Below are positions 46,415 to 63,000 of a stretch of 64,000 bases of DNA, piece by piece. Position 1 is the stretch's first letter. Every line of letters starts with the position of its first letter. Source of the stretch: a virus; IMG/VR virus record IMGVR_UViG_3300001102_000006. One strand, given 5' to 3'. The position numbers were made by a program, and so were the translations under genes. The notes under the pieces were generated by a model, which did not search any database, had not been told where the DNA came from, and was given only the letters and a program-made list of their open reading frames with translations.

Positions 46415-48592
46415 TCAATGCGTTTCTGCCCAGTTAATTCCAATTTTTGCTTCGGCAGTGATTGGGCAGTTAAATCCGAAGTGATCCCCAGCCAGTGGTG
46501 CCGTGTTTTCCATAATCTCTGCGGCACGTTCTGCCAAATCTTCACGAACAGCAATTTGAATTTCGTCGTGAGACCAGCTTGAGAAATAGTATTCCAAGCC
46601 AACACCATGATCCCAACCCTCGTCAAACATTGTATCGTCAACCAGCAGACACCATTTCTTTGCGAGAAGCGCGCCGTCTGATTGCAGGCGAAGATTGAGT
46701 GCAGAGTGCTTCGAACGAGCAAACAGGCGGCGTCCGTCCAATCCACGAATGGTTCCGCTGTTCTGGCGCATTTCTTTGTGGATAGCTTTGATAGCTTCTT
46801 TCAAGGACGGCATAGCCGCCATGAGTTTCGCCCGCAAAGTTTTCCCCAATGCACGCTGACGCGTTTCGGAGGAAAGCGGTTCCACAATTGATCCGAGCTT
46901 CGCATCGCCACCGCCGTACATAAGCGCGTAAAGAGCACGTTTCGCAACACCACGACTGATCCCGGCGAGGTCGGCATTCTTTTGGTGAATGTCCCCAGTC
47001 AGAACAACGTCAACCAGTTCTCCGCCGTCAAACTCGTAAGTTAGATTAGAGAGGCATCGAAATTCCACGCCGGACTGGTCACAACCAACGAGCTTGTAGC
47101 CTTTGGGCACTGTGAAAAGTTCACGACAATCCCAGCCATGATCACCCTCGCGACCACGAACGATGATTTTCCACTCGCCTTTTTTGTCCTTCCATTCGGA
47201 CTCTACGTGTGTGCCTGCCTTCTTGTGGCGTTCCACAAGTGCAAGCCCCTTGTCGTAGTCTTTTGGTTCCAACGGGTTGACACCCGGCACCTGAGAAACA
47301 TTGGGAGCGGCGTGAGTTGCGCGTCCAGAAACCGTTCCACCAACATTTACACGCCCATGGATACGCTGGTCAGCACGAACAAGTTTCAGCCAACCATTAC
47401 GTCCATCCGCGACCATGCCGATGCGTTTCTTGTAGTAAAAGATTTCCGCCAATGTTTCTGCCAGCGGAATGTGCTCTACGAGGTTGCGTAGAATTTCGTC
47501 GTCAACCCGTGCATTGCCTTTCTCGGTAAAGTCTTGTGGTGTCCAACCATACATGTGAGACAGACGATCAACAATTTGCTGACGGCTATTTGGGTTAAAT
47601 TCCCGCAACTCTACCTTGACAAACGGACAGCCTTCTTCGACGGAACCATTTACCTTTTTGTACTCTCCGGTTTCCGAATACTTACGGATACTCTTAACAC
47701 GGTTCATCGACTTTTTTGGGATCGTTACGTTGGCCCAAGTGCGGCGCTTTGCGCTCTCCCCGTGATCGGGTTCCATGGTTTCTTCATCGTGCCAGCGCGC
47801 AGGGCGAAACCAAATACCAATGGCTTCAACCGCTTTGTCATAAAACTTATCGTATTCTTCTTGCAGTTGGACAGCCAGTTTTTCCGCCCGTTCCAAATCG
47901 AAAAAGAAGCCGTTCCGTTCCTGTTGGATCATCAAAGCATGGATATTGTGCTCAAGGCTGATTGCCTCGGGCGACCATTCCATCACCTCAATACGGTCCC
48001 AAAGCTCTTTGTTGACTTCCACGTCATTGACACAGTAGTCATGCATGTCTTCATTCCACGTTCCCCAGACGTAGAAGTGTAGTTCTTCGTCTGTCGGTGG
48101 TTCGAGGCCCGCTTCTTTGTGCTGCGCCTTTAGAGCCAACTCACGATCTTTTTTGTAATCGCCTTTGTGCTTTCCGAGACGCTGGCCCCAAGCTTCCAGA
48201 CCCTGCAAACCGATCAAGCGTCCTTCAAGGTCACCCTTTGCTGCCATGCGGAAGTCTTTTTCTTTCACGTCCGCGAAGCACATACGCGACATGACCAACG
48301 TGTCGATGATACGCGCCTGTGGCTGGAACCACGGAAAGATCAATTGAACTGCTGGAATATCAAAGTCAAGAATGTTGTGTCCGACCAGAAGGTCTGCATC
48401 CATCAGAAGCTTTACGCCATCTTCAAGATCATTTTCGTCTGGCGTGTTGACATAATCAACAATCTCGCCAGTATCGATGTCCATGATGACAATACAATGG
48501 ATACGATCCATAGCAAACACACCAACCGCCCCTTGTTCTTCCAAGAGACCGTTGGTTTCAATATCGAAGATGAGGCGTTTGAATGTGGACAT
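46415..48592 (-). CDS. DNA polymerase family A, T7 gp5-like
   Basis: DIETNG, GHNI..FD, LEAWG.RLG..KG, YC..DV exonuclease; motif A DQSGVEFR, motif B RGVAKRALYALMYG, motif C HDEIQ. Confidence 0.96.
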   Translation of the reverse strand: MSTFKRLIFDIETNGLLEEQGAVGVFAMDRIHCIVIMDIDTGEIVDYVNTPDENDLEDGVKLLMDADLLVGHNILDFDIPAVQLIFPWFQPQARIIDTLVMSRMCFADVKEKDFRMAAKGDLEGRLIGLQGLEAWGQRLGKHKGDYKKDRELALKAQHKEAGLEPPTDEELHFYVWGTWNEDMHDYCVNDVEVNKELWDRIEVMEWSPEAISLEHNIHALMIQQERNGFFFDLERAEKLAVQLQEEYDKFYDKAVEAIGIWFRPARWHDEETMEPDHGESAKRRTWANVTIPKKSMNRVKSIRKYSETGEYKKVNGSVEEGCPFVKVELREFNPNSRQQIVDRLSHMYGWTPQDFTEKGNARVDDEILRNLVEHIPLAETLAEIFYYKKRIGMVADGRNGWLKLVRADQRIHGRVNVGGTVSGRATHAAPNVSQVPGVNPLEPKDYDKGLALVERHKKAGTHVESEWKDKKGEWKIIVRGREGDHGWDCRELFTVPKGYKLVGCDQSGVEFRCLSNLTYEFDGGELVDVVLTGDIHQKNADLAGISRGVAKRALYALMYGGGDAKLGSIVEPLSSETRQRALGKTLRAKLMAAMPSLKEAIKAIHKEMRQNSGTIRGLDGRRLFARSKHSALNLRLQSDGALLAKKWCLLVDDTMFDEGWDHGVGLEYYFSSWSHDEIQIAVREDLAERAAEIMENTAPLAGDHFGFNCPITAEAKIGINWAETH

Positions 48593-48651: not shown

Positions 48652-49191
48652 CTAGGCTAGTGCCTCGTCCATTGGGGTTTTGTCTGCCATCCATGCGGGT
48701 GCCACGTCCTTCAAATACATGATTTCACCCACTTCGCGAACGTAGTCCAGCGGAATTTTTGGGTTGTTCAAATGGTCACGTTTGCCCAGCATAGACATCC
48801 ACTTGGCAAAAACCGGCTCCATCGCCGCAGTCTGCACAAGATATGCTTCCTGCAACGTAATACCTTCGTACGTAGCAAAAACAAAACGACGCGAGCGATA
48901 CCGAGCAATGGTTCCGGAATGAAGGTGGTGATTTGTAGAAAAGCCTTTGACGCCACGAGAAAGGTCGAGTGTCTTCAACTCATATTCATTTCCCATGCGA
49001 TCACAAGCATCAGGACCGGTGCGTCCCGGAACGATATCCAGACCAACGGCAATAGCAAGCTGCGCCACTTTGCCGCCATTGTCGCTGAAAATGTCGGGGA
49101 TGCCGTAGTGCGAAGCGAGTTCTTGATAACGGCGAACACCGGGCCAAAGTTTTTCGATTTCTTCGTAGCGAAGATTCATATGTGTCGGCAT
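48652..49191 (-). CDS. PvuII-family type II restriction endonuclease
   Basis: LWP....YQ.LA..YGI.DIF.DNGGK...GL...PGR.G.DA.D..G.EYELK......KGFST.HH...A.YR...FA.Y.GI...KW...NNPKIP..YV.E.G matches R.PvuII along its whole length (recalled sequence); GGAG RBS. Confidence 0.9.
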   Translation of the reverse strand: MPTHMNLRYEEIEKLWPGVRRYQELASHYGIPDIFSDNGGKVAQLAIAVGLDIVPGRTGPDACDRMGNEYELKTLDLSRGVKGFSTNHHLHSGTIARYRSRRFVFATYEGITLQEAYLVQTAAMEPVFAKWMSMLGKRDHLNNPKIPLDYVREVGEIMYLKDVAPAWMADKTPMDEALA

Positions 49192-49192
49192 A

Positions 49193-49801
49193 CTATGCTC
49201 CCAAAAGTGATTTGATTTCTTCGTACGCCGCCATGTATTCTTCGCGGGCCTTTTTCGGACGCCAGTAATAGAAGTCTGGATCGATGTCGCGCAGAGCGCG
49301 TACCGGCGTAGAAGGTACATCCCAAAGATCAGATGGGATTGCGCACATTTCTTGGGACTCGGCCCAGAGAAGTTGAATGTCGGCGTACTTGACCCAGCGA
49401 TGAATTTCTGGATCAAAAGGCACATTGTAGCCGTCGATAAAGGCGCGCTCAGCCAGTGCCTCGTGCTGTTTGTATTCGGGGCTTACCGCTTTGAGCGGGC
49501 TGGGCATATCTGTGTAATACCCTTCAACCGCATCGTGCAGAAGTGCCCACGCAAGCGCCCGCTCGGGGCAGTCGGGGCGTGTTTTTCGAAGCTCTTTCAG
49601 GAAGCGATATACATACACACTGTGTTGTGCGATGCAGTAAATCTCGTCTTCCAGTTCGGGTCCATCTTTCAATTGACCATTGTAACGGCAGCATCGAGAA
49701 ATCCCGGCTGCCATATCATTGATGTCGAATTGATCCGGGGTGACAGCATCGTAGTAGAATCTTTTTGCGGATGCGGTCTGAATCCAGTGGCTGCGGCTCA
49801 T
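49193..49801 (-). CDS. HD-domain 5'-deoxynucleotidase (YfdR/YfbR-like)
   Basis: WIQT, I.D.A..IS..CRY.G, Y.IAQHSV, ALLHDAVEGY.TDMPSPLK, VK.AD...L..E. Confidence 0.88.
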   Translation of the reverse strand: MSRSHWIQTASAKRFYYDAVTPDQFDINDMAAGISRCCRYNGQLKDGPELEDEIYCIAQHSVYVYRFLKELRKTRPDCPERALAWALLHDAVEGYYTDMPSPLKAVSPEYKQHEALAERAFIDGYNVPFDPEIHRWVKYADIQLLWAESQEMCAIPSDLWDVPSTPVRALRDIDPDFYYWRPKKAREEYMAAYEEIKSLLGA

Positions 49802-49817
49802 TGTTTTCTCCTTCGCC

Positions 49818-49850
49818 GGATGTGATACACTGTGAAAAGTCACATGTCAA
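49818..49850 (-). promoter_or_regulatory. Putative promoter TTGACA-N17-TATCAC for HD/REase/Pol operon
   Basis: Intergenic; spacer contains TGTGAC-TTT-TCACA inverted repeat. Confidence 0.5.
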
Positions 49851-49853
49851 GCA

Positions 49854-51686
49854 TTAACTGTCCAAAGCTTTGCTGATGATGTCCATTTTTTCTAGGATGG
49901 CGGCTGCCATGTAGGCTTCAATCGATCCGTCAACAAGAAGATATTGTGCGATCACAGCGTTCAACTGACCGTGACGCCATGCGCGATCTTCGGCTTGTTC
50001 CATCAATGCCGGAACCCAGTCAAGTTCTGCAAAGACAACAAAACGTGCGCGTGTTAGTGTCCAGCCTACGCCCATCGCCATAATGTTTCCGAGGATTACA
50101 TCGTAAAGACCGGCTTGGAAATCGTCTACAAATTGCTGTCGTTTCTTTGTGGAAACATCACCTGTGATTACGGCTACGCGAATTCCAAGTTTTTCTAGTC
50201 TCTTTTGTAGTTCCTTAATTACCGATTTATGATAGGCAAATCCGATGACCGGTTCGTCGCATGCAACCAGCTTCGCAATGTGATCGGCAACCATGCCAAC
50301 TTTTGCAAGCGCTACTTCCTCGCGAGCGGCACTCATTTCTGTAAACAGCAATTGATCTGGTGCAGACAGTGTTCTAACCGCCGCCTCAAGATCAGGTTCT
50401 TCACTGTCTTGTAGAGAGAGAGCTTCGGCAATTCGGTCAGAAAGTCCTTCCATCATCGTAATATAACGGAATGGGCTATCGTCTTCACTCAAGCCTAATA
50501 GTTTCTCGTATTGCGCCAATGCGCTTTCGACGCGGTTCTTTTCTTTCTTGACCGGCGTTTCCAATTTGTCCTGCGGCAGGATGATTGGTTCTCGCGTCTT
50601 GTCTGGAAGTTCTTTTAGAACGGCTCGTTTGTCCCGACGAATCATAAAGCGTTCACGAAGGATTGCACTCAGTTCTTCGAGATTAGATGCGCCGCTCGCA
50701 TCAATACCAAAATGACCGTCTTCCGCATCGCAATATGTGTATGCGTAATTCTCCCAACTTGCCCCCAAACCTTTTGGGTCGCACGCTCGGATCAAATTCC
50801 ACAATTCAATTGGGCGAGAAAGTATGGGCGTGCCTGTCAGATACAAAGCACGCACAGAAACAATTTCTTCGTACGTCTTAGCGTCTCGAACTTTTACGCC
50901 ATTCTTCCTTTTTGCCGGACGCTGCCCACCAAATACACACTGCGTACGCAATGCATCGGCTGTTTTCAGCAGGTGGCATTCGTCTGCCACCATCAAATCC
51001 CATGTAATAGCTTTGACCTGAGAGTCGAATGCGTCAAGCATGTCGTAATTGACGATTACAACGTCTGTTTCTGGCCAAACATGTTCAGTCCACGTGCGGT
51101 ACACGAGCTTATTGTTGTCGTCCCGCACCCGCTCACCCTGATCATTTAGCACATGTTCGCGGCGAATGATGCTCTCGGCAATTCCAACAGTCTTGCCATG
51201 GATGTCCCACTTAATCCACTCGCGCATCCAGTTAATCTTCAAAGACGCGGGGCAAATTACGAGAACACGTTTTGCACAAACGACATTATGGACACCGATT
51301 GCCTGAATTGTTTTTCCCAATCCCGGTGGATCGGCAATTAGCGTTTTGTCACGTTTGACCGCATATTCAATTCCGGCGCGCTGGAATGGCATATATGCCA
51401 AACCGTCTGGTGCGGGGAATTCGGCATCAGTGTCTTCGGCCCAAGACGCAGCTACAACTGCTGCGGCAATCGCTTCTGCATTCTCAAGGTATTCAAGCGC
51501 GGCCCCCGTCGCGTGCTCGAAAAGATTACGGGCTTTATCCTCGTTTGCGGTTGTCCAGCCTTTGACGTTTTTGTCATAGACCCAACCGTTTCTTTTGAAG
51601 ATTAGTCTTTCGGCATAATTACAGCCCGAGCGTCCATCAGACAATCGGGTTGTAAATACTCCGTCTACGCGATCAAATTGAGGCAT
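49854..51686 (-). CDS. SNF2/HARP-like SF2 helicase
   Basis: PFQ..G, ADPPGLGKT.QA, ICPASL..NW, ADECH, LTGTPI, RR.K..VL.ELP.K, G.G.TLT, QAEDRAWR.GQ. Confidence 0.93.
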   Translation of the reverse strand: MPQFDRVDGVFTTRLSDGRSGCNYAERLIFKRNGWVYDKNVKGWTTANEDKARNLFEHATGAALEYLENAEAIAAAVVAASWAEDTDAEFPAPDGLAYMPFQRAGIEYAVKRDKTLIADPPGLGKTIQAIGVHNVVCAKRVLVICPASLKINWMREWIKWDIHGKTVGIAESIIRREHVLNDQGERVRDDNNKLVYRTWTEHVWPETDVVIVNYDMLDAFDSQVKAITWDLMVADECHLLKTADALRTQCVFGGQRPAKRKNGVKVRDAKTYEEIVSVRALYLTGTPILSRPIELWNLIRACDPKGLGASWENYAYTYCDAEDGHFGIDASGASNLEELSAILRERFMIRRDKRAVLKELPDKTREPIILPQDKLETPVKKEKNRVESALAQYEKLLGLSEDDSPFRYITMMEGLSDRIAEALSLQDSEEPDLEAAVRTLSAPDQLLFTEMSAAREEVALAKVGMVADHIAKLVACDEPVIGFAYHKSVIKELQKRLEKLGIRVAVITGDVSTKKRQQFVDDFQAGLYDVILGNIMAMGVGWTLTRARFVVFAELDWVPALMEQAEDRAWRHGQLNAVIAQYLLVDGSIEAYMAAAILEKMDIISKALDS

Positions 51687-52401: not shown

Positions 52402-52561
52402 CGCTTAAAAACCATAACTTCGCCGGAAACCAAACGCATGTAATCTTCTCCATCATGAAGAACCGGCACCGTCTCCATAAATCCAAGCGAATTAGGTTCC
52501 ATGTGGGAGATAGTACGTTCAACGTTCTTTCCGTCCACAGTGACGGTCATTGTAGGCGCGC

Positions 52562-53212
52562 TCATTGGTCAGGCCAGATCGTTTGACACACCGCTGCACA
52601 CTTGTCCAAATCCAGCCAATCATCAGTCCGGACGCCGCTTTCCATGTCGATCCAAAAACGATGCTGGACCCCAATGTTTTCCAAGACTTCTGCAACGTTT
52701 TCAGGGCCGATGCCACCTGCATATCCGCAAAAGGTTCCAGAACGGGCACTCGGAAATTCTGTTTCCACCACGCCGCGCCCGCCTGATCGGTCGAGCAGAA
52801 AATCAAAGTCAGGGTCGTTGGGGAAAACACCGTCACGATGTTGCAGGATGATGCGTGTCCCACCGTTGCCAAACATGTCGAGGTGGTGACGCAGATTGTC
52901 CATAGTGTCTTCGTACGAACCAGAATTGACCTGAATGCGTCCGTATATGTAGGGATTTACAACATCCCAACCGTCCCGTGTTTGGAACTCCCGAGAAACT
53001 GAACCGCACACGTGTGCCGCCAGCATAAGACCGCGATCAGCACCAAAGTCTTCTATGCGTTCTAGGTCCATGTCCTGTGGGTATCTCTGCGATTTCGACG
53101 TGCGAGAATGCAGCACACCCCATTCAATTGGGTAGCGGTCGGAAAGTTCCACAACCCGGTGCAAATCAGTTTTGGCGTCAACGCCTGTGAATGTGACGTG
53201 ATTGAGTGTCAT
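52562..53212 (-). CDS. TrpF (phosphoribosylanthranilate isomerase)-like TIM-barrel protein
   Basis: TFTG.D, EWGVL, AAHVCG, RIQVN, LLDRSGGRG, GYAGGIGPENV, WIDMESGVRT. Confidence 0.7.
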   Translation of the reverse strand: MTLNHVTFTGVDAKTDLHRVVELSDRYPIEWGVLHSRTSKSQRYPQDMDLERIEDFGADRGLMLAAHVCGSVSREFQTRDGWDVVNPYIYGRIQVNSGSYEDTMDNLRHHLDMFGNGGTRIILQHRDGVFPNDPDFDFLLDRSGGRGVVETEFPSARSGTFCGYAGGIGPENVAEVLENIGVQHRFWIDMESGVRTDDWLDLDKCAAVCQTIWPDQ

Positions 53213-53694
53213 GTTATCTCCAAAAACGGTAGGTCACCTTTACGGTAAAGAGGATGGGGTGGCTCACCTTTCCCTTTACCGTTGCGCTCGCCAATCGAAT
53301 ATGGTGTGTGACCTTCGTTGCGAATAAGGTCTAGGACTGCCTCAGAGCGCCCCTGATAGACGCCATGGTTTCCCCATGCACAGACTACCATATCGGCTTC
53401 CAGCAACGCCTGACGGATCACTGTGTCGTTCTCAGGCCCAATGGGGTCTTGCGCGGCTTTCATGTCCTTTGGATCAGTCGCACGGAAAGCAAACAGATTG
53501 ACGACCTCAATGCCGCCCATGTCTTCCCGCTTGGCAAATTCAATGCAGCGTCCGATTGTAGGATCATCGACAACCGCGTCAGCGGTTGATGGGTTGAGCA
53601 TTACAAACAACATGACCGGGAATTCTTCGTCCCAATCTCGTGACAGGCTGTAGCGGTAAATGCCGTCTTCGGAAATGTATGCGTCTTTGATCAT
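53209..53694 (-). CDS. DUF1643-family protein
   Basis: YRY.L.R.W, FVMLNPSTAD...DDPTI.RC, VVNLFAFRATDP, AWG..G, P.HPLY. Confidence 0.9.
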   Translation of the reverse strand: MIKDAYISEDGIYRYSLSRDWDEEFPVMLFVMLNPSTADAVVDDPTIGRCIEFAKREDMGGIEVVNLFAFRATDPKDMKAAQDPIGPENDTVIRQALLEADMVVCAWGNHGVYQGRSEAVLDLIRNEGHTPYSIGERNGKGKGEPPHPLYRKGDLPFLEIT

Positions 53695-53888
53695 AACCGT
53701 TTCCTCAGATTTGCAACAATCATCTCACGCTCCAAAGGAACGCCCATGACACCATATTCCATTGTCGTAAACGTGGCTTCGATGTCGTTTGGAAGCGCGC
53801 GAACAGCCGCGTTAAGTTCTTCCTCGGCTTTACGCACGCGGCTGATCTTTTCGCTGACTTCTGCTGAAAGAACTACAGTCTCGCCCAT
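53691..53888 (-). CDS. Hypothetical protein
   Basis: Coupled overlaps both sides. Confidence 0.55.
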   Translation of the reverse strand: MGETVVLSAEVSEKISRVRKAEEELNAAVRALPNDIEATFTTMEYGVMGVPLEREMIVANLRKRL

Positions 53889-54874
53889 CAGAATTCCTTA
53901 CATTTTTTGAGCCACCACTTCTTTGATGCCTCGGTGATGTGCTTCGACACATCTTTCCATTCAAGTCCGGCATCCGCAAGCTCGACTTGAGATTCCTTCT
54001 TGATGTCTTGTCCCATCCATTTGAAGAAGTCGCCGGTTCGTGCCGGTTCCGCCACACCTTCACAGCCCTCAGTCAATGCCTGTTCACAACGTGCGGGAGT
54101 GACAAACATCTCGACAAATTCAGCCACGCCTTCGGGGATTTCCACGAAAGTCGGAACAAGCTTTTTGTTGTTCTTGACAGAGTGTGCTTCGGTCTTTGCT
54201 TTGAAGGTTAGCATCGAGTACAGATCACGCGGCATTCCAAGCGTTGCGTCGTCCCCGTCCAAATCGGTGATAGGAGATACGACCCACCCTTCGCCGGGTC
54301 CTTCCACGCCAAAAATGCCGTAGATAAACGGGTCGCGCTCGCCAATGCTTTGCACAGCACGTCCCGCTTCTCCGCCCAGCGCAAGGCATTCTTCTTCAAT
54401 GCCCAGATGGAACGGCTTGTCCCAAATTGTGTCCCACGGCAAAACAATCACGTCATCCAGATCAGGAATCATCTGTTCAATGGTGTCCGGATCAGTGAGC
54501 ATGTCGTCTTCAATTTGAACAGCAAAAATGAAGAAGTATTTCTGGTCCAGCCCACACACGGCGTCACCCTTCTGGATGCCTTTTCCTGCCCATTCACCAA
54601 AGAATGTGACACGGCCCGTGGGGAGGTCTGCTGCCGCCCATGCGGCTTTGTGAGGTTCAAGCCACGTGGCGAACCCAGAGTTGTCCATCTCGGGTGTAAT
54701 ATCTCGTGTGCGAGACTGTGCGTAAACGCTACCGTCTTGTTCGATACGAACGCCTGCGTTGGTGCCGTGTAGTTTGATCTTCGCACCAAACTTGACTTCT
54801 GCGGGCTTCTCAAAGCGGCGCTGCCCACGGACGACATGGGCGAAAGATTCGATGCTGGGGAATTTTATGAACAT
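53888..54874 (-). CDS. RNA ligase (Rnl2-like nucleotidyltransferase)
   Basis: Motif I KLHGTN, QSR, DN.GFA, FGEWAG.GIQKG, EGWV, FKAK. Confidence 0.8.
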   Translation of the reverse strand: MFIKFPSIESFAHVVRGQRRFEKPAEVKFGAKIKLHGTNAGVRIEQDGSVYAQSRTRDITPEMDNSGFATWLEPHKAAWAAADLPTGRVTFFGEWAGKGIQKGDAVCGLDQKYFFIFAVQIEDDMLTDPDTIEQMIPDLDDVIVLPWDTIWDKPFHLGIEEECLALGGEAGRAVQSIGERDPFIYGIFGVEGPGEGWVVSPITDLDGDDATLGMPRDLYSMLTFKAKTEAHSVKNNKKLVPTFVEIPEGVAEFVEMFVTPARCEQALTEGCEGVAEPARTGDFFKWMGQDIKKESQVELADAGLEWKDVSKHITEASKKWWLKKCKEF

Positions 54875-54898
54875 GCCTGCCTGATCCTTTATGGGTTG

Positions 54899-54923
54899 GG
54901 AAAGGCCCCGTTAGGGGCCTTCC
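54899..54923 (-). terminator. Stem-loop after rIIB
   Basis: AAGGCCCC-GTTA-GGGGCCTT. Confidence 0.6.
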
Positions 54924-54929
54924 ATTGTC

Positions 54930-56288
54930 TTACAGAGAGGCGAGCCAGCCTTGAAGTGTCGAGCGCGGTACGCCGTGTAGGCGACTGAATCCGCGCTGTC
55001 CAAGACGTTGAACCTCGGATTGAAGTTCTGAGGCCGTGAAGGTTGCGCCAGTCGCTTGATGCGAGAACGTGCGCGGTACGTTGTCCTCCTTGAGTGGCGT
55101 CAGATACTGCGCAGCATCCATCTGGTGATCGACAGTGCCTCCGGCAATCACAACTTCGTCTTCCACAGGGTCTTCGTCAGCGGACACTTCAACACACGTC
55201 AGCGGCATGATGTCGTATTCTTCGACGTAGACTTCTTCACGCATACCGTTCTGCCACACTACCGTGTAGTTGGTGTAGTAGGTGGTCTCGCCGTCATCGA
55301 TCCATTCACCGTCATCGTCGTAGTAACCCTCATCGGATTCTTCTTCGCCGTCTTCCATATCGGTGATGACGCCGACAACACAGGAATTGCCTTTGACAAC
55401 CAGACAATCAAGGTCAGGTTCATCGTCAGTTTCGACCCAGTAATCGAAGAAGTCTGTCCGCGTGGTGAACGCAGGCAGGTCAACCAGAGACTCGGGCAAC
55501 GGCACTTTGTTCTGTGACGGTGTATCGACCACATGTTGCTTCTCGATGGACGCGATTTCGTGGTCGCTGGTCACTTCGGCAAGAACTTCGTAGCGACAAG
55601 TGCGCATCTTGGAAAAACCGTAGTCGGTCGGAACAGACACAACGTCGCGCGGATTGACCTTGCAGGCCACGACCTTCGCATTGGTCGAGTAACCGTTCAG
55701 ATAAATCGATGCGCAGACGTGCAGGCCGGTAGAACAGGTCTCATTCGGGTTGTCGTTGACCTGCTCACGGGGCATCTCAACGATCTTGCCGGGGCTGTTG
55801 TCCATCCGAGAACCGTCAGCGTTGGCGTGCGCGCTGGTGAAGTCTTCACGCACATACTTGAACGCAACAAAGCATCCATCGGGAGTGAGCGGCGCTTGGA
55901 ACCGGTCAATGAAATTGTACAGACATTCCCGCGAACGATCCGAGGGGTTCTCCATCACGTTGTTGAGGAACCAGACCCACGGCGTGGCGTCCATACCTGC
56001 ATCCAACAACTGGATCAGCTTCTCGGTCAACGTCGAGCGAACAGGTGCGCCACGGTAGAAGACTTCGTTTCCAACCACTGTCACCATACCAGCCGTGAGG
56101 CGGCTGACCAGTTCACGCTTGTCCAGAAGCTCCGCAACAAGAAGCTCGTCATGGTCTTCAAGGGCAGGGTCGGTCAGGTGAGCGACAAGCCGGTCATATC
56201 CGGGGTGCGCGGCGGGGATGGTTTGCAGGGTGTTTCGGACAAACACCGAAAGGCTCTGGTCCGAGAATGTGTAAAAAAGCTTAGGCAT
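54930..56288 (-). CDS. rIIB: rIIB-like protein
   Basis: FL.N..ENPS, LY.F, TPDG.FVAFK, N.PG..VEMPR..V.DN...TCSTGLHVC, KVNPRDVVSVP.DY...KMR.C.YEV. Confidence 0.9.
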   Translation of the reverse strand: MPKLFYTFSDQSLSVFVRNTLQTIPAAHPGYDRLVAHLTDPALEDHDELLVAELLDKRELVSRLTAGMVTVVGNEVFYRGAPVRSTLTEKLIQLLDAGMDATPWVWFLNNVMENPSDRSRECLYNFIDRFQAPLTPDGCFVAFKYVREDFTSAHANADGSRMDNSPGKIVEMPREQVNDNPNETCSTGLHVCASIYLNGYSTNAKVVACKVNPRDVVSVPTDYGFSKMRTCRYEVLAEVTSDHEIASIEKQHVVDTPSQNKVPLPESLVDLPAFTTRTDFFDYWVETDDEPDLDCLVVKGNSCVVGVITDMEDGEEESDEGYYDDDGEWIDDGETTYYTNYTVVWQNGMREEVYVEEYDIMPLTCVEVSADEDPVEDEVVIAGGTVDHQMDAAQYLTPLKEDNVPRTFSHQATGATFTASELQSEVQRLGQRGFSRLHGVPRSTLQGWLASL

Positions 56289-56298
56289 GGGTTCCTCC

Positions 56299-58461
56299 TT
56301 ATGCTGCGGTTGCAGTGGCTTTGTGACGAATCGTTTCCGCCGCTACATCACAGGTGTAGATGTATTTGGCAAGTATGTCAACCAGTTTGTCCCGATTGCT
56401 GTAGCGGTAGTTGGTGCAGATCATTTCGATCAGAGGATAGCTTTCCTCCATCAGTTCTGCATGGAACTCCATTTCACCGACTTCCGGTACATCGCCTTCC
56501 AGCATTTCTTCATCGCCCATGGCGCGAACAAATTCCAGTAGGGTATTGGCTTGCGAAGTGTCTTCGTTCTTGACGGCGTTGAAGAATTCAACGGCAGAAA
56601 TGGCATCCGATTGTGCGTCAATCAGAGATGGGTCCAGATAATCCGACAGGCTCCGGAGAACCGAATTCTGGCGGATGGTGTTGATTGCTCGCGCACGCAG
56701 GGCGGCGTCAGCGCCGTCAGTCTCGTCATACGTCTCCTTCGCGAGGTCGTACAAGTCAACCCACTGTTCGCCCTCAAATCCCTTCCACAGAGTTTTGGGA
56801 ACGCCATAGATGCGCTGATCGGATTCAATCGCACCCATCTGACGCAGAATGCGAACCATTTGCTGTGGATGCGCCAGCTTGTACGGATACTGCGGCTGGT
56901 TACGTTCCAGTCGAATGAAAATGCCGCCTTCGTCCATTTCATCCGGCGTCAGTTCCACCTTCTCATCAAAGTCACGATAAGAGTGCTCATTCATCAGGCG
57001 CACCATGACAGGCGAACGGGTGCCGCCGCTGTAGCTTTCACGGGCGGGTTCTTCCAAATCAGACGCATACACGATCTCGATGCCGTCCAGAAGTCCATCG
57101 ACGCAAACGAAAGCGTCCGCTTCCTGCTTGCCAGAACCGTAATACTTGACCCAGATAACCTGACGCAGGCTGTTCTCGCGACTATAGTGGCGGATGCGTG
57201 CAGCAACGCGCTTGGCGCGTTCCTTGACAGGCAAGGACAGGTCTTCGATGATCATGATGGTCTTATCAGTAGGCTCGACATCGACCTTTTCCTGATACCG
57301 ATCAAACCGGAAGGTGCGCCGGTCCAGTGCTTTGCCGGACAATTCGCAAAAGTCCAAAGCACGATAACCGTTGGCAGCCCGCGACACGCGGATGTGCTTT
57401 TCAAGACGAACACCTTGCCATTGAGCGTTGCTCCGCACCAGTTTCAGGATGCACTCTGGCAGGTTCATTGCAGTATGCTGACGATATTTGACAACGGCAT
57501 CCCAGTAGGTCGCGCACTTCTCATAGTCCGCCAAAATTCCGTCAACAACCTCAGACACAATCGTGCGCACACGCTTTGTGATCGAGTCGGCGGTCGGTTC
57601 ATTACGACCGTAGGACAGGCTTTCACGAGACGGCGTGATCTCAAGGTCACCGATGGGAAATTCAATCACCACAGTCGATTGAAGAAAGGCTACCTCGTCA
57701 GAAGACAAGTGATCTAGCGCTTCAACATTGATGGGATAGAGTACACAGCCCATTTTGGCATAGGCTGTACCACCGTAGCCTTCGAGTGCGCCATTCAGGA
57801 GCTTCCAGCCATCACCTTCTGTGACAACCGGGAGATCGACCCAGCCTTCAAAATCGTCGCTGTTGACCACATTGGGCTTAACATCGAAACCGTAAGACAC
57901 ACGCTGGGCCGCACGGCGGAACGCGCGAACGTCGCCTGTGTCCACCGGGAAGGACACCTCGATACCCGGCTCTTGGTCGCTGGGCTGCTCTGCCATCATG
58001 TTCATGGATGGGATGCCACCATTCTCGATGATCGCAGTGTAATAACGGGCATTTGTGCCGTCATAAGAAACCACAGAGAACGTGTCCGTATAGGAGAAAG
58101 GAGACTTGGACCCGATACCGAACTTGCCCACACCATCGTTACTGTCTTCTTTGGTGGACTTGCCGAGATTGGTGTAGAGGTTCATGATAATGTCGTGGCT
58201 CATGCCGGGGCCGTAGTCACGAACACGGAACGTGGGGTCGAAGACGGATGGGAACGTAACGTCAAACGCACGGTCGGGCGTGCCAGCCTCGACGTGGGCG
58301 TCACGTGCGTTCGACCAAATCTCACGCGTAATGGACTGAGGCTTGTTCTCGTACAAGCCTGAAATGAGCATGTGGAAAATCTTGGCGTCTTCGGTGATCT
58401 GGAACGTGGCGCGCTCGCCTGCGTTGACGGTGACGTTGCGGTCTTGGGTTTGGGTCTTCAT
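56299..58461 (-). CDS. rIIA: rIIA-like protein (GHKL ATPase N-terminus)
   Basis: LISGLYENK, REIWSNARDAH, VRDYGPGMS, STK, GKFGIGSKSPF.YTD.F; directly upstream of rIIB. Confidence 0.9.
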   Translation of the reverse strand: MKTQTQDRNVTVNAGERATFQITEDAKIFHMLISGLYENKPQSITREIWSNARDAHVEAGTPDRAFDVTFPSVFDPTFRVRDYGPGMSHDIIMNLYTNLGKSTKEDSNDGVGKFGIGSKSPFSYTDTFSVVSYDGTNARYYTAIIENGGIPSMNMMAEQPSDQEPGIEVSFPVDTGDVRAFRRAAQRVSYGFDVKPNVVNSDDFEGWVDLPVVTEGDGWKLLNGALEGYGGTAYAKMGCVLYPINVEALDHLSSDEVAFLQSTVVIEFPIGDLEITPSRESLSYGRNEPTADSITKRVRTIVSEVVDGILADYEKCATYWDAVVKYRQHTAMNLPECILKLVRSNAQWQGVRLEKHIRVSRAANGYRALDFCELSGKALDRRTFRFDRYQEKVDVEPTDKTIMIIEDLSLPVKERAKRVAARIRHYSRENSLRQVIWVKYYGSGKQEADAFVCVDGLLDGIEIVYASDLEEPARESYSGGTRSPVMVRLMNEHSYRDFDEKVELTPDEMDEGGIFIRLERNQPQYPYKLAHPQQMVRILRQMGAIESDQRIYGVPKTLWKGFEGEQWVDLYDLAKETYDETDGADAALRARAINTIRQNSVLRSLSDYLDPSLIDAQSDAISAVEFFNAVKNEDTSQANTLLEFVRAMGDEEMLEGDVPEVGEMEFHAELMEESYPLIEMICTNYRYSNRDKLVDILAKYIYTCDVAAETIRHKATATAA

Positions 58462-58496
58462 GGGTTTGGGCCTCCTATGTGACTTTTCGTGTTGAA

Positions 58497-58595
58497 CCAT
58501 ACCTACCCACATATGAACTGATTCGCAAGGGTTTTCTGGTAATAATTTGTAGGTAAAAATTATCTTGACATTTCAGGGGAGTATGGGTATGAACG
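58497..58595. promoter_or_regulatory. Divergent promoters: - strand TTGCGA-N17-TAGGTA, + strand TTGACA-N17-TATGAA
   Basis: AT-rich strand-switch region; both fit CTTGmc-N15-GGGTA as at 2483 and 9260. Confidence 0.5.
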
Positions 58596-58760
58596 AGTGT
58601 ATCTGTCCAGAAGACGGTAGACGAGTTCCTTCCGACCGGCGTGTTCTAGTCATAGAACCGGGTGCCATCGTTCGCGAAGGTAACACAATAAAGAAAGATA
58701 CGTCTAAGATTCACATCTTTGACAAGAATTGCCCGGTGCATGGGTATACGGAGGTAACGG

Positions 58761-59162
58761 ATGGGTAAATCCCCCGTTGAGGATTTTTTCGCGCAGTACG
58801 AAGATTTGGCACTTGCAGTAATTGAGGACGAACGTCCCAACATTGAGATCGGCACAGAAATGTGTAACGCAGACATGGCGGAAGCCGTTTGCCAGATCAT
58901 GGATTGGGAATGTTTCGATCTATTCGATGAGTATGACTTCCAGATGGTGTACAAATCAGGTACGCCCCATATGGTCATGGCATTTTGCTACATCGCTTTT
59001 TTGCGTTGGGAATTATGGTTGTCCGCGTCGGTCCAGAAGATTGGAGATGCAGACTTCAATGAAAAAGCTTGCGCTTATGACGAACTTTGGTATCTTCGGC
59101 TTCGTGACCGCTACGCGGCACTGGTAAGCGGAAGGGAAACAAAGCACGGATGGCTACAGTAG
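58761..59162 (+). CDS. Hypothetical protein
   Basis: GGAGG RBS; 133 aa. Confidence 0.6.
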   Translation: MGKSPVEDFFAQYEDLALAVIEDERPNIEIGTEMCNADMAEAVCQIMDWECFDLFDEYDFQMVYKSGTPHMVMAFCYIAFLRWELWLSASVQKIGDADFNEKACAYDELWYLRLRDRYAALVSGRETKHGWLQ

Positions 59163-59389
59163 ACACCAAGAAAATTCATCAAAGCATGGAATCTGCTCGC
59201 GACACCGCGAACGGAACCATGGAGATGTGGATTCAGTTTGACACCGAAGAAGAAGTGCAGATTGCCAAGGACTGGATGAAAGGAAAACGCAAGGTCAAGA
59301 CCCTTGAACCCCTGACCAGAGAAGAATCTGACAAGAGAAAAGCCAAGAAACGCAAAGAGATAGCCCGTAAGATGGGTATTAAAGAATAA
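59150..59389 (+). CDS. Small basic hypothetical protein
   Basis: 79-aa ORF overlapping upstream gene. Confidence 0.55.
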   Translation: MATVDTKKIHQSMESARDTANGTMEMWIQFDTEEEVQIAKDWMKGKRKVKTLEPLTREESDKRKAKKRKEIARKMGIKE

Positions 59390-59455
59390 TTACAGTTGCG
59401 AATCGTCACATGATGGTCTACCTTCGCCATACCGAATCAACGTATGGAGGACATC

Positions 59456-60157
59456 ATGACCCAGCGAGGACCCGCCCGCACTTTCACCGAAGATCAGCTT
59501 GATCGACTTCTGCGTGACGTGACAAATGAGCAAGCGAACAAACGCAGCGGGGCACAAAACCCCGAAGTCATTCGCGCCGCATTCATGCTTTCCTTCTATG
59601 CCGGTCTGCGTGTGCAGGAAATTGCTGGCATGCAATGGAACCTGAATGTTTTTCAGGGTAACGATGAGTTCCGCGTAGCTCCCACTGTCGTGTATGACAT
59701 GCACGGCAACGCTGTCGTAGACAAGCACGGCGAAGAAGTCATGCAAGACATGGAAGTCTTGTTTGTCAATGAAGACATTGGCAAGTACGGCAAAGCCCGA
59801 AACATCCCGCTCCACCCAAAACTGAAAACAGCCCTTCTGGAACTCCGTGAGTTGCAGCTTGAAGGTTCGTGGGTCATTCCTGCGGGCAAGCAAGGTGCAG
59901 GCCAAGGTCTCCGTCACCGCGCTCACGCGCTCAAGATGCGTATGAACCGCCTGTATCAGGCGCTGGGCATCGACCGGGCAACGTCACACAGCGGGCGGCG
60001 CAGTTTCATCACGCGAGCGGCGCGCCGCGCTAACGCCTACGACGCCTCTCTTGTGGACGTGCGGGACTTGGCGGGACACGCGAGCATCAACACCACGCAA
60101 GCCTACGTCGATCCCAGCAAACAGCAGGGCGACCTTGTGAAAGGCGTGTGGAAATGA
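59456..60157 (+). CDS. Tyrosine recombinase (catalytic domain only)
   Basis: YAGLRVQEI (R), GKYGKAR (K), SHSGRR (HxxR), LAGH, TTQAY (Y); GGAGG RBS. Confidence 0.9.
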   Translation: MTQRGPARTFTEDQLDRLLRDVTNEQANKRSGAQNPEVIRAAFMLSFYAGLRVQEIAGMQWNLNVFQGNDEFRVAPTVVYDMHGNAVVDKHGEEVMQDMEVLFVNEDIGKYGKARNIPLHPKLKTALLELRELQLEGSWVIPAGKQGAGQGLRHRAHALKMRMNRLYQALGIDRATSHSGRRSFITRAARRANAYDASLVDVRDLAGHASINTTQAYVDPSKQQGDLVKGVWK

Positions 60158-60654
60158 GCACATTCGACATAGAGACACAGGTTTGCGTAGCAGATGATCA
60201 CGACTTTGAGTTGGGGTCTCAGTGGGTCGTTGGCATATTTACCAACGACGCTGACGCTGAAAACGCAGGCAACATTGAAGTTCGCACTGCCGCAAGGCAC
60301 TTTGATCTGTCCACCCAAATTCTTCGCGGGGTTGTCTGGTATCCCAACGTTACGTGGGTCGATCAAGGGGAAATTGACGGCGACGACCGGCGTTGGAAAG
60401 GAACAGCGACCGGCTTTGAAATTGACCTGCGCTATCAGTGGGGCGGGAAATGGAAAGGCCATTGGACGGTTATCGTAAATCACGGTGCCATTCAAACGGG
60501 TCACGGCGAGCACGGCTATTTGTTCGACAGCGTTGAAGAAGCTAAAGAAGCCGCCGAAACTGAAATCAAAAGACGCGTCAGTGAGAAGGTGAAGTCCGCG
60601 TTAGCGGTTCTGGATACCTACACGGATGTACCCATAGGAGGTTACAACGAATGA
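60154..60654 (+). CDS. Hypothetical protein
   Basis: ATGA coupling; F.S.EEAK.AAE motif. Confidence 0.6.
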   Translation: MSTFDIETQVCVADDHDFELGSQWVVGIFTNDADAENAGNIEVRTAARHFDLSTQILRGVVWYPNVTWVDQGEIDGDDRRWKGTATGFEIDLRYQWGGKWKGHWTVIVNHGAIQTGHGEHGYLFDSVEEAKEAAETEIKRRVSEKVKSALAVLDTYTDVPIGGYNE

Positions 60655-61289
60655 TTGACCCAAATTTGGTTACAAACTACAACCGTGACGACGACGATTT
60701 GCTGGAATTCTGGCTGTTTTGTCTGTTCGTTCGCGGCAAAAATGCGAATGTGCAGGCATTGAAGCTGGAACAATTTGTACGCCTGCTTCTCGGTGCGACA
60801 CAAAAGACAACGCTGACTCAGGCCATGAAGGCTGTCAACACAAACAGCGCCATTGCCGAAAATCTAGTGTCGGCATTGCTGTTGCGGGTTAAGGCAGGTC
60901 AATACGGTACGTTGGCCGCAGCTATACAGGAAACGGCCAATCGGATCGATTACAAGGCAGACTTTTTGCGATGCGCGTCAGCGTGTGACCTTGAAGCCAT
61001 TCACGGAGTTGGTCCGAAGACCGCCCGATACTTCATTCTGCACACCCGTCCAAAGGCGCGTGTAGCGGCACTGGACACGCACATCTTGCGTTATCTGGGT
61101 GACCGTACCGACATGACCGTACCAAGCTCCACACCGACTGGAAAACGGTATGCTGAACTTGAAGAAGCTTTTCTTCTCATGGCAGACTTTGAGGGGGTTG
61201 ACCCCGCCGCTATGGATTTGGCAATATGGCAGGCAAGCAGAGAAACGAATCACGCCGACTGGCGTAGATATTTGGAGGAACCCGCATGA
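60651..61289 (+). CDS. HhH-GPD superfamily DNA glycosylase-like protein
   Basis: LEAIHGVGPKTARYF (HhH with Lys), ALDTHILRYL (Asp), Y.ELE..F, DLAIW; resembles the Ogg/AGOG-type branch. Confidence 0.75.
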   Translation: MIDPNLVTNYNRDDDDLLEFWLFCLFVRGKNANVQALKLEQFVRLLLGATQKTTLTQAMKAVNTNSAIAENLVSALLLRVKAGQYGTLAAAIQETANRIDYKADFLRCASACDLEAIHGVGPKTARYFILHTRPKARVAALDTHILRYLGDRTDMTVPSSTPTGKRYAELEEAFLLMADFEGVDPAAMDLAIWQASRETNHADWRRYLEEPA

Positions 61290-61906
61290 CCGATCACGCA
61301 TACGACCGATTTCTGAGACCCAAGACAGGGCTTCTGCCCAAGTTCCTGCCAGAAGAACATCTTCTGACCATGGAAGACGTTCACACGGGTCCATACCATA
61401 TCTGGATTGGGATGAAGGGCACTGTGTTTGTTGACATCGACGGCACCGTTGCCGATCTTGAGCACCGCCGGAAGTACGTCGCGACGAAGCCGAAGAATTG
61501 GCCTGCGTTTGAGCGCGCCATTCCGCTGGATACACCAATTCAGCACGTCATTGATGCGGTGAACCTTCTCTATGATGCGGGCTGGACAGTCGTGATGATG
61601 TCGGGGAGAAGCGAGATCAGCAAGGACGCCACAGTCAAGTGGTTGGCGGATCACGGTGTGCAATATCATGACATTTTCATGCGCCGCCAGTGGGAATATG
61701 ACGCTGACGGGGAAATCAAGATCACCCGAAAAGGTAAGCCTCTGGGCGATTATCGTCGCGATGATATCGTCAAAGAAGAACTACTGGGAGTCGCCCGAGA
61801 GAAGGGCTACGATCCTGATGTGGTATTCGATGACCGAGATCAGGTTGTCGTGATGTGGCGGCGTCTGGGAATTCCGGTTGTTCAGGTTGCCGAAGGTGAC
61901 TTCTGA
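61286..61906 (+). CDS. HAD phosphatase, T4 PseT/PNK 3'-phosphatase-like
   Basis: DIDGTVA, SGR, T..WL, MR...DYR.D.IVKEE, FDDR.QVV.MWR..G....QVA.GDF. Confidence 0.9.
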   Translation: MTDHAYDRFLRPKTGLLPKFLPEEHLLTMEDVHTGPYHIWIGMKGTVFVDIDGTVADLEHRRKYVATKPKNWPAFERAIPLDTPIQHVIDAVNLLYDAGWTVVMMSGRSEISKDATVKWLADHGVQYHDIFMRRQWEYDADGEIKITRKGKPLGDYRRDDIVKEELLGVAREKGYDPDVVFDDRDQVVVMWRRLGIPVVQVAEGDF

Positions 61907-62517
61907 TGTGGTCATTGTCGCTGAAACACAAGCAAACCAATGAAACATTGAAGCAGGTCTTCTTCCATGACCAGCCCAGTGTTTTCATTCTGGCAGACTA
62001 TAACATTGGCACAGTCAGCGCATCGGCCCTTCTTACCGAAGGTTGGGCGCTGGCGGTCGATGGGGACTGGTATCTCGAAGAAATTGTTCCTATGGACAAT
62101 CGCCGGGAAGTCAGACAGAAACATGCTGACAAGTGGCTTGAATTCGCAAAAATCCTCGGCCAAATCACCTACAAGCCCGGATGGTATTTCCGCAATGGAA
62201 TCGAAGACGGGCGCATGTGGGTGCAGGTCGGCGTCACCGAAGAAGCTGAAATCTCCTTCGACCCGATTGCGGGCACACGCGTTCCTTGGCGTGGCGCAAA
62301 GCATTATCTGTCTCCGCACATGTGTCGCCAAGAGATCGTCAGTACAATTCTGCATGCAATCGAGCGGGCAGAAATGCACGAAGTACACGAATGGTTCCGA
62401 TATAAAGGCCGTTCGATCTACAACCCCCACCTTGATCCAGATGCCTTGGTGGAGGTCGCGAAGTTTGCGCGCAACTTCAATACGCGTGATAACGCCATGA
62501 CCATGAGTGATGGCTAA
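61906..62517 (+). CDS. Hypothetical protein
   Basis: 203 aa; E.HE..EWFRY.G..IYNPH motif. Confidence 0.6.
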   Translation: MWSLSLKHKQTNETLKQVFFHDQPSVFILADYNIGTVSASALLTEGWALAVDGDWYLEEIVPMDNRREVRQKHADKWLEFAKILGQITYKPGWYFRNGIEDGRMWVQVGVTEEAEISFDPIAGTRVPWRGAKHYLSPHMCRQEIVSTILHAIERAEMHEVHEWFRYKGRSIYNPHLDPDALVEVAKFARNFNTRDNAMTMSDG

Positions 62518-62547
62518 TACAACCTGATCGCAAAATGGAGGTTCAAC

Positions 62548-62850
62548 ATGTTTCGAACTAAAGCGGAACGAGAATACGACAAGGCAAAGACGGTTTTTCT
62601 GCTACGAGCAAGTGAGCCGGGATCACGCGTCATGGTGGACATCTCCGCATGTCAGGTAATGCGAGAAGGGCGATTGATTCACACGCCTTTACCAAAGATC
62701 GTCTTCGAATGCCTACACGAAGGGTACATTCAATCTACCGGAACCGGTGGGTTTGAGATCACATCGTCAGGACGCTTGGCGGGGCTTGCAGGACGGAAAC
62801 GGATGACACACCGATCACCCCACAAGCTTGACCAGAGAGCCGTCGCATAA
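62548..62850 (+). CDS. Hypothetical protein
   Basis: GGAGG RBS. Confidence 0.55.
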   Translation: MFRTKAEREYDKAKTVFLLRASEPGSRVMVDISACQVMREGRLIHTPLPKIVFECLHEGYIQSTGTGGFEITSSGRLAGLAGRKRMTHRSPHKLDQRAVA

Positions 62851-63000
62851 ACGTCGAAGCCACCAATAGCCGGGGACATGTACGTGTTCCCGGTAATAGC
62901 ATCCGCAGTCTTCGCATATGAAATCTCCGTAGGCTTCTTCCCACTCACCACTTTCAACACGAATTTTGTCCGGACGAGATGGGACCGGCAACTTAGACAT
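62815..63000 (-). CDS. Small Cys/His-rich hypothetical protein
   Basis: CEDCG..Y.EH...L.RLCDG.LVKL; overlaps upstream gene stop. Confidence 0.5.
   Translation of the reverse strand: MSKLPVPSRPDKIRVESGEWEEAYGDFICEDCGCYYREHVHVPGYWWLRRLCDGSLVKLVG

Follow-up and report, generated by a model that had tools for sequence, protein, structure and literature searches.

A restriction enzyme normally kills its carrier unless the matching methylase is present. The gene considered here encodes a restriction endonuclease of the PvuII family that stands alone, and is found in a 64,000-nt stretch of the virus record IMGVR_UViG_3300001102_000006 (the window; all negative results given for the window cover these 64 kb). 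It belongs to a block of genes in the order SNF2-HD-PvuII-polymerase-exonuclease, in which the following features were located:

46415-48592, minus strand: family A (T7-like) DNA polymerase (PF00476), 59 nt downstream of the PvuII gene
48652-49191, minus strand: solitary PvuII-family type II restriction endonuclease, 179 amino acids plus stop codon (PF09225, Protein Data Bank matches and AlphaFold2 model)
49193-49843, minus strand: HD-domain hydrolase, directly upstream of the PvuII gene and on the same strand
49198-49202, minus strand: ribosome-binding site GGGAG, read from the sequence, 6 nt 5′ of the ATG and within the 3′ end of the HD gene
49854-51686, minus strand: SNF2-family helicase (PF00176/PF00271), first gene of the block

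The HD stop codon (49195-49193) is followed, after a single nucleotide, by the ATG of the PvuII gene (49191-49189), which suggests that the two genes are translationally coupled. A promoter scan returned 51720-51693 as the sole promoter-like site on the minus strand upstream of the block. The HD gene has Pfam matches below the cut-off to YfbR-like 5′-deoxynucleotidases (E = 2.7e-4) and to HD (E = 2.2e-3), and its orthologues in three related phages (DSS3P8, RcXuper and RpAliso) are labelled ‘HD superfamily hydrolase’. Both the ribosome-binding site and the place of the gene between the HD gene and the DNA polymerase are as the original prediction, made from the letters of the sequence, had described them.

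The encoded protein is a member of the PvuII family. It matches the Pfam family Endonuc-PvuII (PF09225) over its full length (E = 8e-40; score 136.8 bits, cut-off 25; positions 4-155 of the 155 in the profile), each of the PvuII chains in the Protein Data Bank matches it with an E-value of about 1e-37, and its identity to authentic R.PvuII of plasmid pPvu1 is 44% (68/155). The AlphaFold2 model of the protein has a predicted local distance difference test score (pLDDT) of 88.6, and in Foldseek it aligns with the PvuII structures 1pvu, 1k0z and 1f0o at target-normalised template modelling (TM) scores of 0.87-0.92 and a root-mean-square deviation of 1.5-2.0 Å. The end-to-end likeness to PvuII that had been claimed by eye is borne out by these matches, fold included. 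In comparison with R.PvuII, the window protein retains D34, D58, E68, K70, S81, T82, H84, H85, N140 and N141, the catalytic D58/E68/K70 being D61, E71 and K73 in its own numbering, and carries the substitutions Q33S, E55T and H83N. The three substitutions had been mapped exactly in the original prediction, as had the retention of the catalytic and of the other recognition residues.

Judged from its sequence, the window belongs to an uncultured phage of the DSS3phi8-like family, roseophages with genomes of roughly 147 kb. A megablast search of the region against the phage collection gave no match, and relatives were detected at the protein level only. The polymerase of the window shares 64% identity with its counterparts in six phages, each about 147-150 kb long: Roseobacter phage DSS3P8 (DSS3phi8), the Ruegeria phages vB_RpoS-V10 and RpAliso, Phaeobacter phage MD18, bacteriophage DSS3_MAL1 and Rhodobacter phage RcXuper. 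A PvuII-like gene of 63-66% identity occupies the same place in five of the six (DSS3P8, V10, MD18, MAL1 and RcXuper), while RpAliso has none, its HD gene lying right next to the polymerase. The gene occurs in only five records out of 50,697 phage genomes; three GenBank records describe it as a restriction endonuclease, and two of these name PvuII. Searching 5.8 billion proteins extended the family considerably, returning about 100 protein clusters (at 90% identity) of the phage type, with 53-99% identity to the window protein and in many cases lying on contigs of 50-160 kb. Below a clear score gap in the same search, bacterial homologues appear at 46-52% identity, and no copy closer than 53% was found in the bacterial genomes of 185,579 species representatives. 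A tree built from 180 sequences parts phage from bacterial proteins at a branch whose Shimodaira-Hasegawa-like approximate likelihood ratio support is 95-96.

The gene order SNF2-HD-PvuII-polymerase is common to all the carrier relatives examined, and even the most divergent phage members (P0099 and P0089, with 53-59% identity) are still within the SNF2-HD-PvuII-polymerase-exonuclease block. Where the slot between the HD gene and the polymerase is visible, about 17 of 19 family members have the PvuII gene. One that does not is the metagenomic locus L047, whose polymerase is the nearest to that of the window (88% identity). Its slot (L047:8877-9998) contains, in place of the PvuII gene, an open reading frame (ORF) of 373 amino acids with an N-terminal helix-turn-helix domain (Pfam HTH_23, E = 4e-5); its identification as a metallophosphoesterase was considered and rejected, since Pfam gives the N-terminal helix-turn-helix only. 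The content of the slot is variable in general, being empty in RpAliso and including extra small ORFs in MD18, MAL1, L099 and L182.

Purifying selection constrains the PvuII gene as strongly as it does the polymerase. Against the locus L097, the protein is 99% identical at a proportion of synonymous differences (pS) of 0.62, with a ratio of nonsynonymous to synonymous substitution rates (dN/dS) of 0.011; against L098, the ratio is 0.03. In all seven pairwise comparisons, the dN of the PvuII gene equals the dN of the DNA polymerase gene within about 20%. At the level of residues, D34, K38, R54, D58, T82, N140, N141, P142 and K143 are invariant in the 97 phage-clade proteins compared, and E68, K70, H84 and H85 are conserved in 96 of them. 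Position 83 is N in 87 of the 97, S in 8 and H in none, and position 55 is never E. We take D34, S81/T82, H83, H85 and N140/N141 to be further base contacts of PvuII, and E55 to be an acidic residue near its active site; His84 of R.PvuII is a base-contacting residue (PMC4705667). The phage clade also shares a C-terminal extension of about 20 amino acids, composed of the motif MYLKDVAPxW and a variable tail, which is absent from R.PvuII and from the aligned bacterial homologues. In the window protein it comprises residues ~158-179 (window 48655-48720) and is modelled with low confidence (pLDDT 56-68). The protein is assumed from homology to be a dimer. Taken together, the residue pattern and the selection would be those of a working nuclease rather than a decaying one, with the loss of E55 as a caveat.

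The PvuII gene is solitary. Searches of the window for a methyltransferase or a controller (C) gene were empty, as had been claimed at the outset: a Pfam scan of 70 ORFs gave no methyltransferase family, the motif [DNST]PP[YFWH] does not occur in a greedily chosen set of 76 ORFs, each 45 amino acids or longer, and tblastn with M.PvuII-like and C.PvuII-like queries found no match. The gene upstream of the nuclease is the HD hydrolase and not a controller gene. The search for a methyltransferase was extended to relatives with the same outcome. In five complete phage genomes and nine metagenomic loci, tblastn with the M.PvuII-like query gave no match, and the C.PvuII-like query gave one weak match among the phages, elsewhere in MAL1 and not beside the nuclease. 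Profile searches of the five complete relatives with PF01555, PF00145, PF02086 and PF05869 had no match, those with PF02384 a single one below threshold (11.5 bits, MD18), and PF01555 (N4-cytosine methyltransferase) was not found in three IMG/VR contigs. In bacteria the situation is the opposite: among 80 loci with bacterial homologues, an M.PvuII-like gene lies within 4 kb in 78 and a C-protein-like gene in 77, and pPvu1 carries both M.PvuII and C.PvuII beside the nuclease. The companions that define a PvuII restriction-modification cassette, a cognate methyltransferase and a C gene next to the nuclease, were found neither in the window nor in the relatives searched.

The recognition sequence of PvuII, CAGCTG, is absent from the DNA of the carriers. 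The window has 0 sites in 64 kb, where 15.0 ± 3.7 are expected from dinucleotide-preserving shuffles and 6.4 from a fourth-order Markov model, in line with the earlier manual reading of none against about 15. There are likewise 0 sites in V10 (52 expected), MD18 (40 expected), RcXuper (48 expected), MAL1 (44 expected), DSS3P8 (count alone) and 13 metagenomic carrier loci totalling 187 kb (49 expected), so that the carrier DNA together, about 1 Mb, contains none versus some 250 expected. Within the window, CAG-CTG is used in 0 of 64 Gln-Leu pairs (6.5 expected) and GCT in 0 of 41 xCA-Ala-Gxx triplets (about 8 expected); avoidance therefore operates via synonymous codons. The neighbouring sequences, for which dozens and several occurrences had been read by hand, are indeed frequent: AAGCTG/CAGCTT occurs 52 times in the window versus 31 expected, and about 2.3-fold over expectation in the complete genomes, and CAGCTA/TAGCTG occurs 10 times.

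It is important to note that the loss of CAGCTG is not confined to the carriers of the gene. The gene-less RpAliso has 0 sites versus 44 expected and the gene-less L047 has 0 versus 5.2. The same is true of phages from other families that infect the same host strain, namely the N4-like DSS3phi2 (0 of 26 expected), V12 and V14 (0 each) and the chi-like V18 (0 of 13 expected), as well as of the Caulobacter phage phiCbK (215.7 kb; 0 of 57 expected) and of many marine podovirus-like contigs whose polymerase identity is only 33-39%. Avoidance restricted to carriers is therefore rejected and avoidance tied to the gene, on which the original prediction had relied, is not supported; the equal depletion of relatives with and without the gene, all at 0, is an outcome that the prediction itself had listed as refuting it. 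Its interpretation is supported in part: the enzyme is of the PvuII family and solitary, and CAGCTG is missing from the phage and present in host DNA. Since the site is absent from gene-less and unrelated phages alike, its depletion is a general property of these phage communities, older than the nuclease or, if not older, unconnected with it. A closer coupling of gene and site is still hinted at by L181, the most divergent carrier lineage, where CGGCCG (16 observed, 13 expected) and AGATCT (4 observed, 4 expected) are tolerated and CAGCTG is at 0 with 6.6 expected.

The depletion of other palindromes, initially mentioned as a caveat, proves to be central. Of the 64 palindromic hexamers, 23 do not occur in the window, including 17 for which 10 or more copies are expected, and in the complete relatives 8-28 are absent. 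Counting only the well-expected hexamers, those missing are 17 of 46 in the window, 21 of 56 in V10, 21 of 32 in V18 and 13 of 48 in phiCbK; the gene-less and the unrelated phages compared each lack 13-21 besides CAGCTG. CTCGAG, GAGCTC and CAGCTG are missing from six of the six genomes compared. The purged set varies by lineage, GACGTC, GTCGAC, CTGCAG and AGGCCT being absent in the window alone. None of the six sequences of the DSS3phi8 family (the window plus five complete genomes) contains CCWGG, and GRGCYC is likewise absent. Some avoidance in the window also appears to concern non-palindromic or degenerate sites, as suggested by CTGAAG (0 of 30 expected), GAGCCC (0 of 24) and CAGCTC/GAGCTG (1 of 29); we liken the sites CAGCTC/GAGCTG, CTGAAG and GAGCCC to AceIII-like, AcuI-like and BanII-like specificities, respectively.

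Host DNA is, on the contrary, rich in the site. Ruegeria pomeroyi DSS-3 is the host of DSS3phi8, V10 and RpAliso, and the replicon surveyed, its megaplasmid (491,611 bp), contains 238 CAGCTG, that is, one per 2.1 kb. A 50-kb host sample has 12 sites, where 15 would be expected, and retains every well-expected palindrome. A Caulobacterales genome with a PvuII restriction-modification system has 2,486 CAGCTG in 4.5 Mb. Such systems are rare: those of the PvuII family were found in at least 519 of 185,579 species (about 0.3%), in none of 60 other sampled Alphaproteobacteria and in 11 of 72,556 plasmids, none of these from Rhodobacterales. These counts cover the PvuII family, and isoschizomers of other folds in the hosts may add to them. 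With co-resident phages free of CAGCTG, host DNA is the obvious substrate of the enzyme, unless it is methylated.

The explanation that we favour, with a probability of roughly 60%, is that the gene encodes a solitary CAGCTG nuclease that is active but spares the phage, whose genome had already undergone a general purge of palindromes, and that its most likely function is to fragment the DNA of the host. The gene would have been acquired once by the family and kept since then in the same slot of a replication and nucleotide-metabolism operon. Its product would be a functional type IIP endonuclease, probably still specific for CAGCTG, and no methyltransferase would be needed because the phage genome is devoid of that sequence. 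The absence of CAGCTG would be part of a wider purge of 6-bp palindromes, presumably an anti-restriction trait, seen in phages of Alphaproteobacteria with or without the gene and allowing a restriction enzyme to be tolerated in the absence of its methylase; after fixation of the gene, the enzyme itself would also select against new CAGCTG sites. The main unmodified CAGCTG DNA in an infected cell would then be that of the host, with about one site per 2 kb in the known host replicon, which makes fragmentation of host DNA the most likely role, whether for host shut-off, nucleotide recycling or preventing the packaging of host DNA. Cleavage activity, exact specificity, and the target and benefit in vivo are what we infer from these data. 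Several points weigh against this explanation. The gene is dispensable, as RpAliso infects the same host without it and the slot of L047 holds a different gene. Position 55 is never E and position 83 never H in the phage clade, so that a reduced activity or a shifted specificity is possible, and the nuclease activity of the clade is itself a prediction from sequence and model. In addition, if a host restriction-modification system of CAGCTG specificity drives the avoidance, the methylated hosts would be immune to the phage enzyme.

A shifted specificity deserves consideration on its own. The enzyme may have drifted from CAGCTG, for example to SAGCTS in a marine subclade that includes the window, with the purge tracking the altered site. 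H83 is replaced in 97 of 97 phage-clade proteins; the window has a single CAGCTC/GAGCTG (at 2065) versus 29 expected and no GAGCTC versus 13 expected; SAGCTS is likewise purged in L097, L098, L099, L049, L052, L053 and L182; and two alignment columns by the recognition strands (window positions 79 and 137) split the purged from the non-purged carriers. These two columns are, however, confounded by phylogeny, and the five cultured carriers hold 111-237 CAGCTC/GAGCTG sites, which means that their enzymes cannot cut them; L055 and L181 are also unpurged. Moreover, L047 is purged (CAGCTC 0 of 10.6 expected) without having the gene, the loss of GAGCTC is accounted for by the purge of GRGCYC (GAGCCC and GGGCCC are absent too), and the known base-contacting residues other than H83, presumed ones beyond His84 included, are all invariant. 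A dependence of the SAGCTS purge on the gene was rejected on account of L047 and of the unpurged cultured carriers. A specificity shift in the marine subclade is thus possible from the sequence though not supported, and drift away from CAGCTG seems unlikely to explain the system. The protein might also not cleave at all, being instead a domesticated site-specific binder, a nicking enzyme, a structural partner in replication or an enzyme crippled by the loss of E55. The position of the gene inside a replication operon, the failure to retain E55 in any member and the conserved C-terminal extension, missing from R.PvuII and its aligned bacterial homologues, are compatible with such a role, and bacterial solitary restriction endonucleases are often thought to be inactive (PMC4176335). 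Against this, the triad of metal binding and general base D58/E68/K70 is kept in 96-97 of 97 proteins under a selection as strong as that of the polymerase, and a CAGCTG binder would have no site in its own genome; we regard a non-cleaving protein as quite improbable.

The target of the favoured CAGCTG nuclease might be other than the host. If the enzyme were a weapon between phages, cutting co-infecting phages, plasmids and mobile DNA, the CAGCTG-free neighbours could be understood as an evolutionary scar. DSS3phi2, V12, V14 and V18 infect the same host strain, at least three of the four come from the same harbour water, and all have zero CAGCTG; family members lacking the gene are free of the site despite saturated synonymous sites; and the rarity of PvuII-family restriction-modification in bacteria (0 of 60 Alphaproteobacteria, 11 of 72,556 plasmids, about 0.3% of species) makes host enzymes of that family a weak driver of avoidance. 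There is also a precedent in the restriction-modification system of marseilleviruses, proposed to act against competitors (PMC7253447). Nonetheless, the same phages lack 13-21 further palindromes for which no phage-borne nuclease is known, so that a general anti-restriction purge suffices for CAGCTG; the freshwater Caulobacter phage phiCbK is CAGCTG-free too, and the neighbour phages of today offer no target. As an account of what the enzyme is for, this is unlikely. The stronger version, in which the solitary PvuII nucleases of DSS3phi8-like phages are superinfection-exclusion weapons and a main force keeping CAGCTG out of host-sharing phages, with the subclade of the window possibly targeting SAGCTS, is rather doubtful; if true, it would explain the CAGCTG-free gene-less relatives and unrelated roseophages in spite of the rarity of PvuII-family systems in bacteria. 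Finally, a selfish or addictive mobile gene could be spreading in the slot without any benefit for the phage, in keeping with its varied content (empty in RpAliso, a different ORF in L047 and extra ORFs in MD18, MAL1, L099 and L182). Endonuclease and polymerase diverge in parallel in all pairs compared and the phage sequences are a single clade, so that inheritance looks vertical; the gene is moreover present in about 17 of 19 members with a visible slot, and homing is impossible because the gene-less relatives have no CAGCTG target. A purely selfish gene is therefore very improbable.

Several known systems share single features with the one proposed here. The closest in protein terms is R.PvuII itself (Proteus vulgaris pPvu1; type IIP, CAG^CTG; PF09225), which has the same fold and length and the same D58/E68/K70, D34, T82, H84, H85, N140, N141 and K143. 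It differs in having M.PvuII and C.PvuII adjacent, whereas the phage gene has neither and shows H83N, E55T and the C-terminal extension of about 20 amino acids. Phage T4 destroys host DNA with endonucleases II and IV (DenA and DenB), its own DNA being immune through hydroxymethylcytosine; the phage DNA is intrinsically immune in both cases, but the T4 enzymes are not type II, and immunity in the present case would reside in sequence composition. R.PacI of Pseudomonas alcaligenes is described as a solitary restriction enzyme, without a methyltransferase and tolerated because the genome that carries it is free of its recognition site (PMC3488263). Assuming CAGCTG specificity, the carrier phage genomes are in the same state. 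R.PacI is, however, a bacterial enzyme of the HNH type, and its AT-only site of 8 bp is rare anyway in a GC-rich genome, whereas here a lytic phage lacks an ordinary 6-mer of which each genome should have 40-50 copies, and it is the host DNA that would be at risk. The type II nucleases of chloroviruses (e.g., PBCV-1) are thought to degrade host DNA early and to feed nucleotide pools; they always have the cognate methyltransferase adjacent and are packaged in virions (PMC7019647), while the protection here is by absence of sites. Sites for an analogous attack are present in the host replicon (238 in 492 kb), and host-DNA degradation would be the corresponding role in the present phages. Solitary restriction endonucleases have been counted in phages, 12 in 831 (Oliveira, Touchon and Rocha, 2014, PMC4176335); they belong to the same category, and the portion of that survey used here describes neither a mechanism of self-protection nor family-wide conservation. 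Neither the DSS3phi8 paper nor the MD18 paper refers to restriction, endonuclease, methylation, the gene or the purge. What would be new is a phage nuclease used offensively, to which the phage is immune through its sequence composition, as in the PacI case, and which has become fixed throughout a family of phages.

A family with about 100 protein clusters, which includes six cultured isolates on tractable hosts, would in this case have long kept a solitary nuclease under strong selection, protected by genome composition only. It provides a natural system for asking whether site avoidance can replace modification, what a lytic phage gains from a type II nuclease and how extreme purges of palindromes originate in the phages of Alphaproteobacteria. 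RpAliso constitutes a natural gene-less control for DSS3phi8 and V10 on the same host, R. pomeroyi DSS-3.

Further features of these genomes were noted. In the window, the block upstream of the SNF2 gene (52500-63997) includes rIIA-like and rIIB genes, an RNA ligase, a PNKP-type phosphatase, DUF1643, an Ogg-like helix-hairpin-helix glycosylase and a gene of the phage-integrase family. The RNA ligase and the PNKP-type phosphatase suggest tRNA repair, and the integrase-family gene is unexpected for a phage described as lytic. The SNF2 and polymerase genes are uninterrupted in the window. In other loci, the SNF2 helicase gene is split by an insert of about 1 kb (L047:5743-6740, L049:5691-6724, L054:6180-7144 and L099:6236-9046), the L099 product has a LAGLIDADG match and may contain an intein, and the DNA polymerase gene of L054 has an insert of about 650 nt (L054:11716-12371). 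In the Caulobacter phage phiCbK (NC_019405.1, L187:1-99), the gene D865_gp294, which lies immediately upstream of the polymerase orthologue, bears the annotation of a DNA cytosine methyltransferase; the equivalent slot of this phage holds a modification gene instead of a restriction gene.

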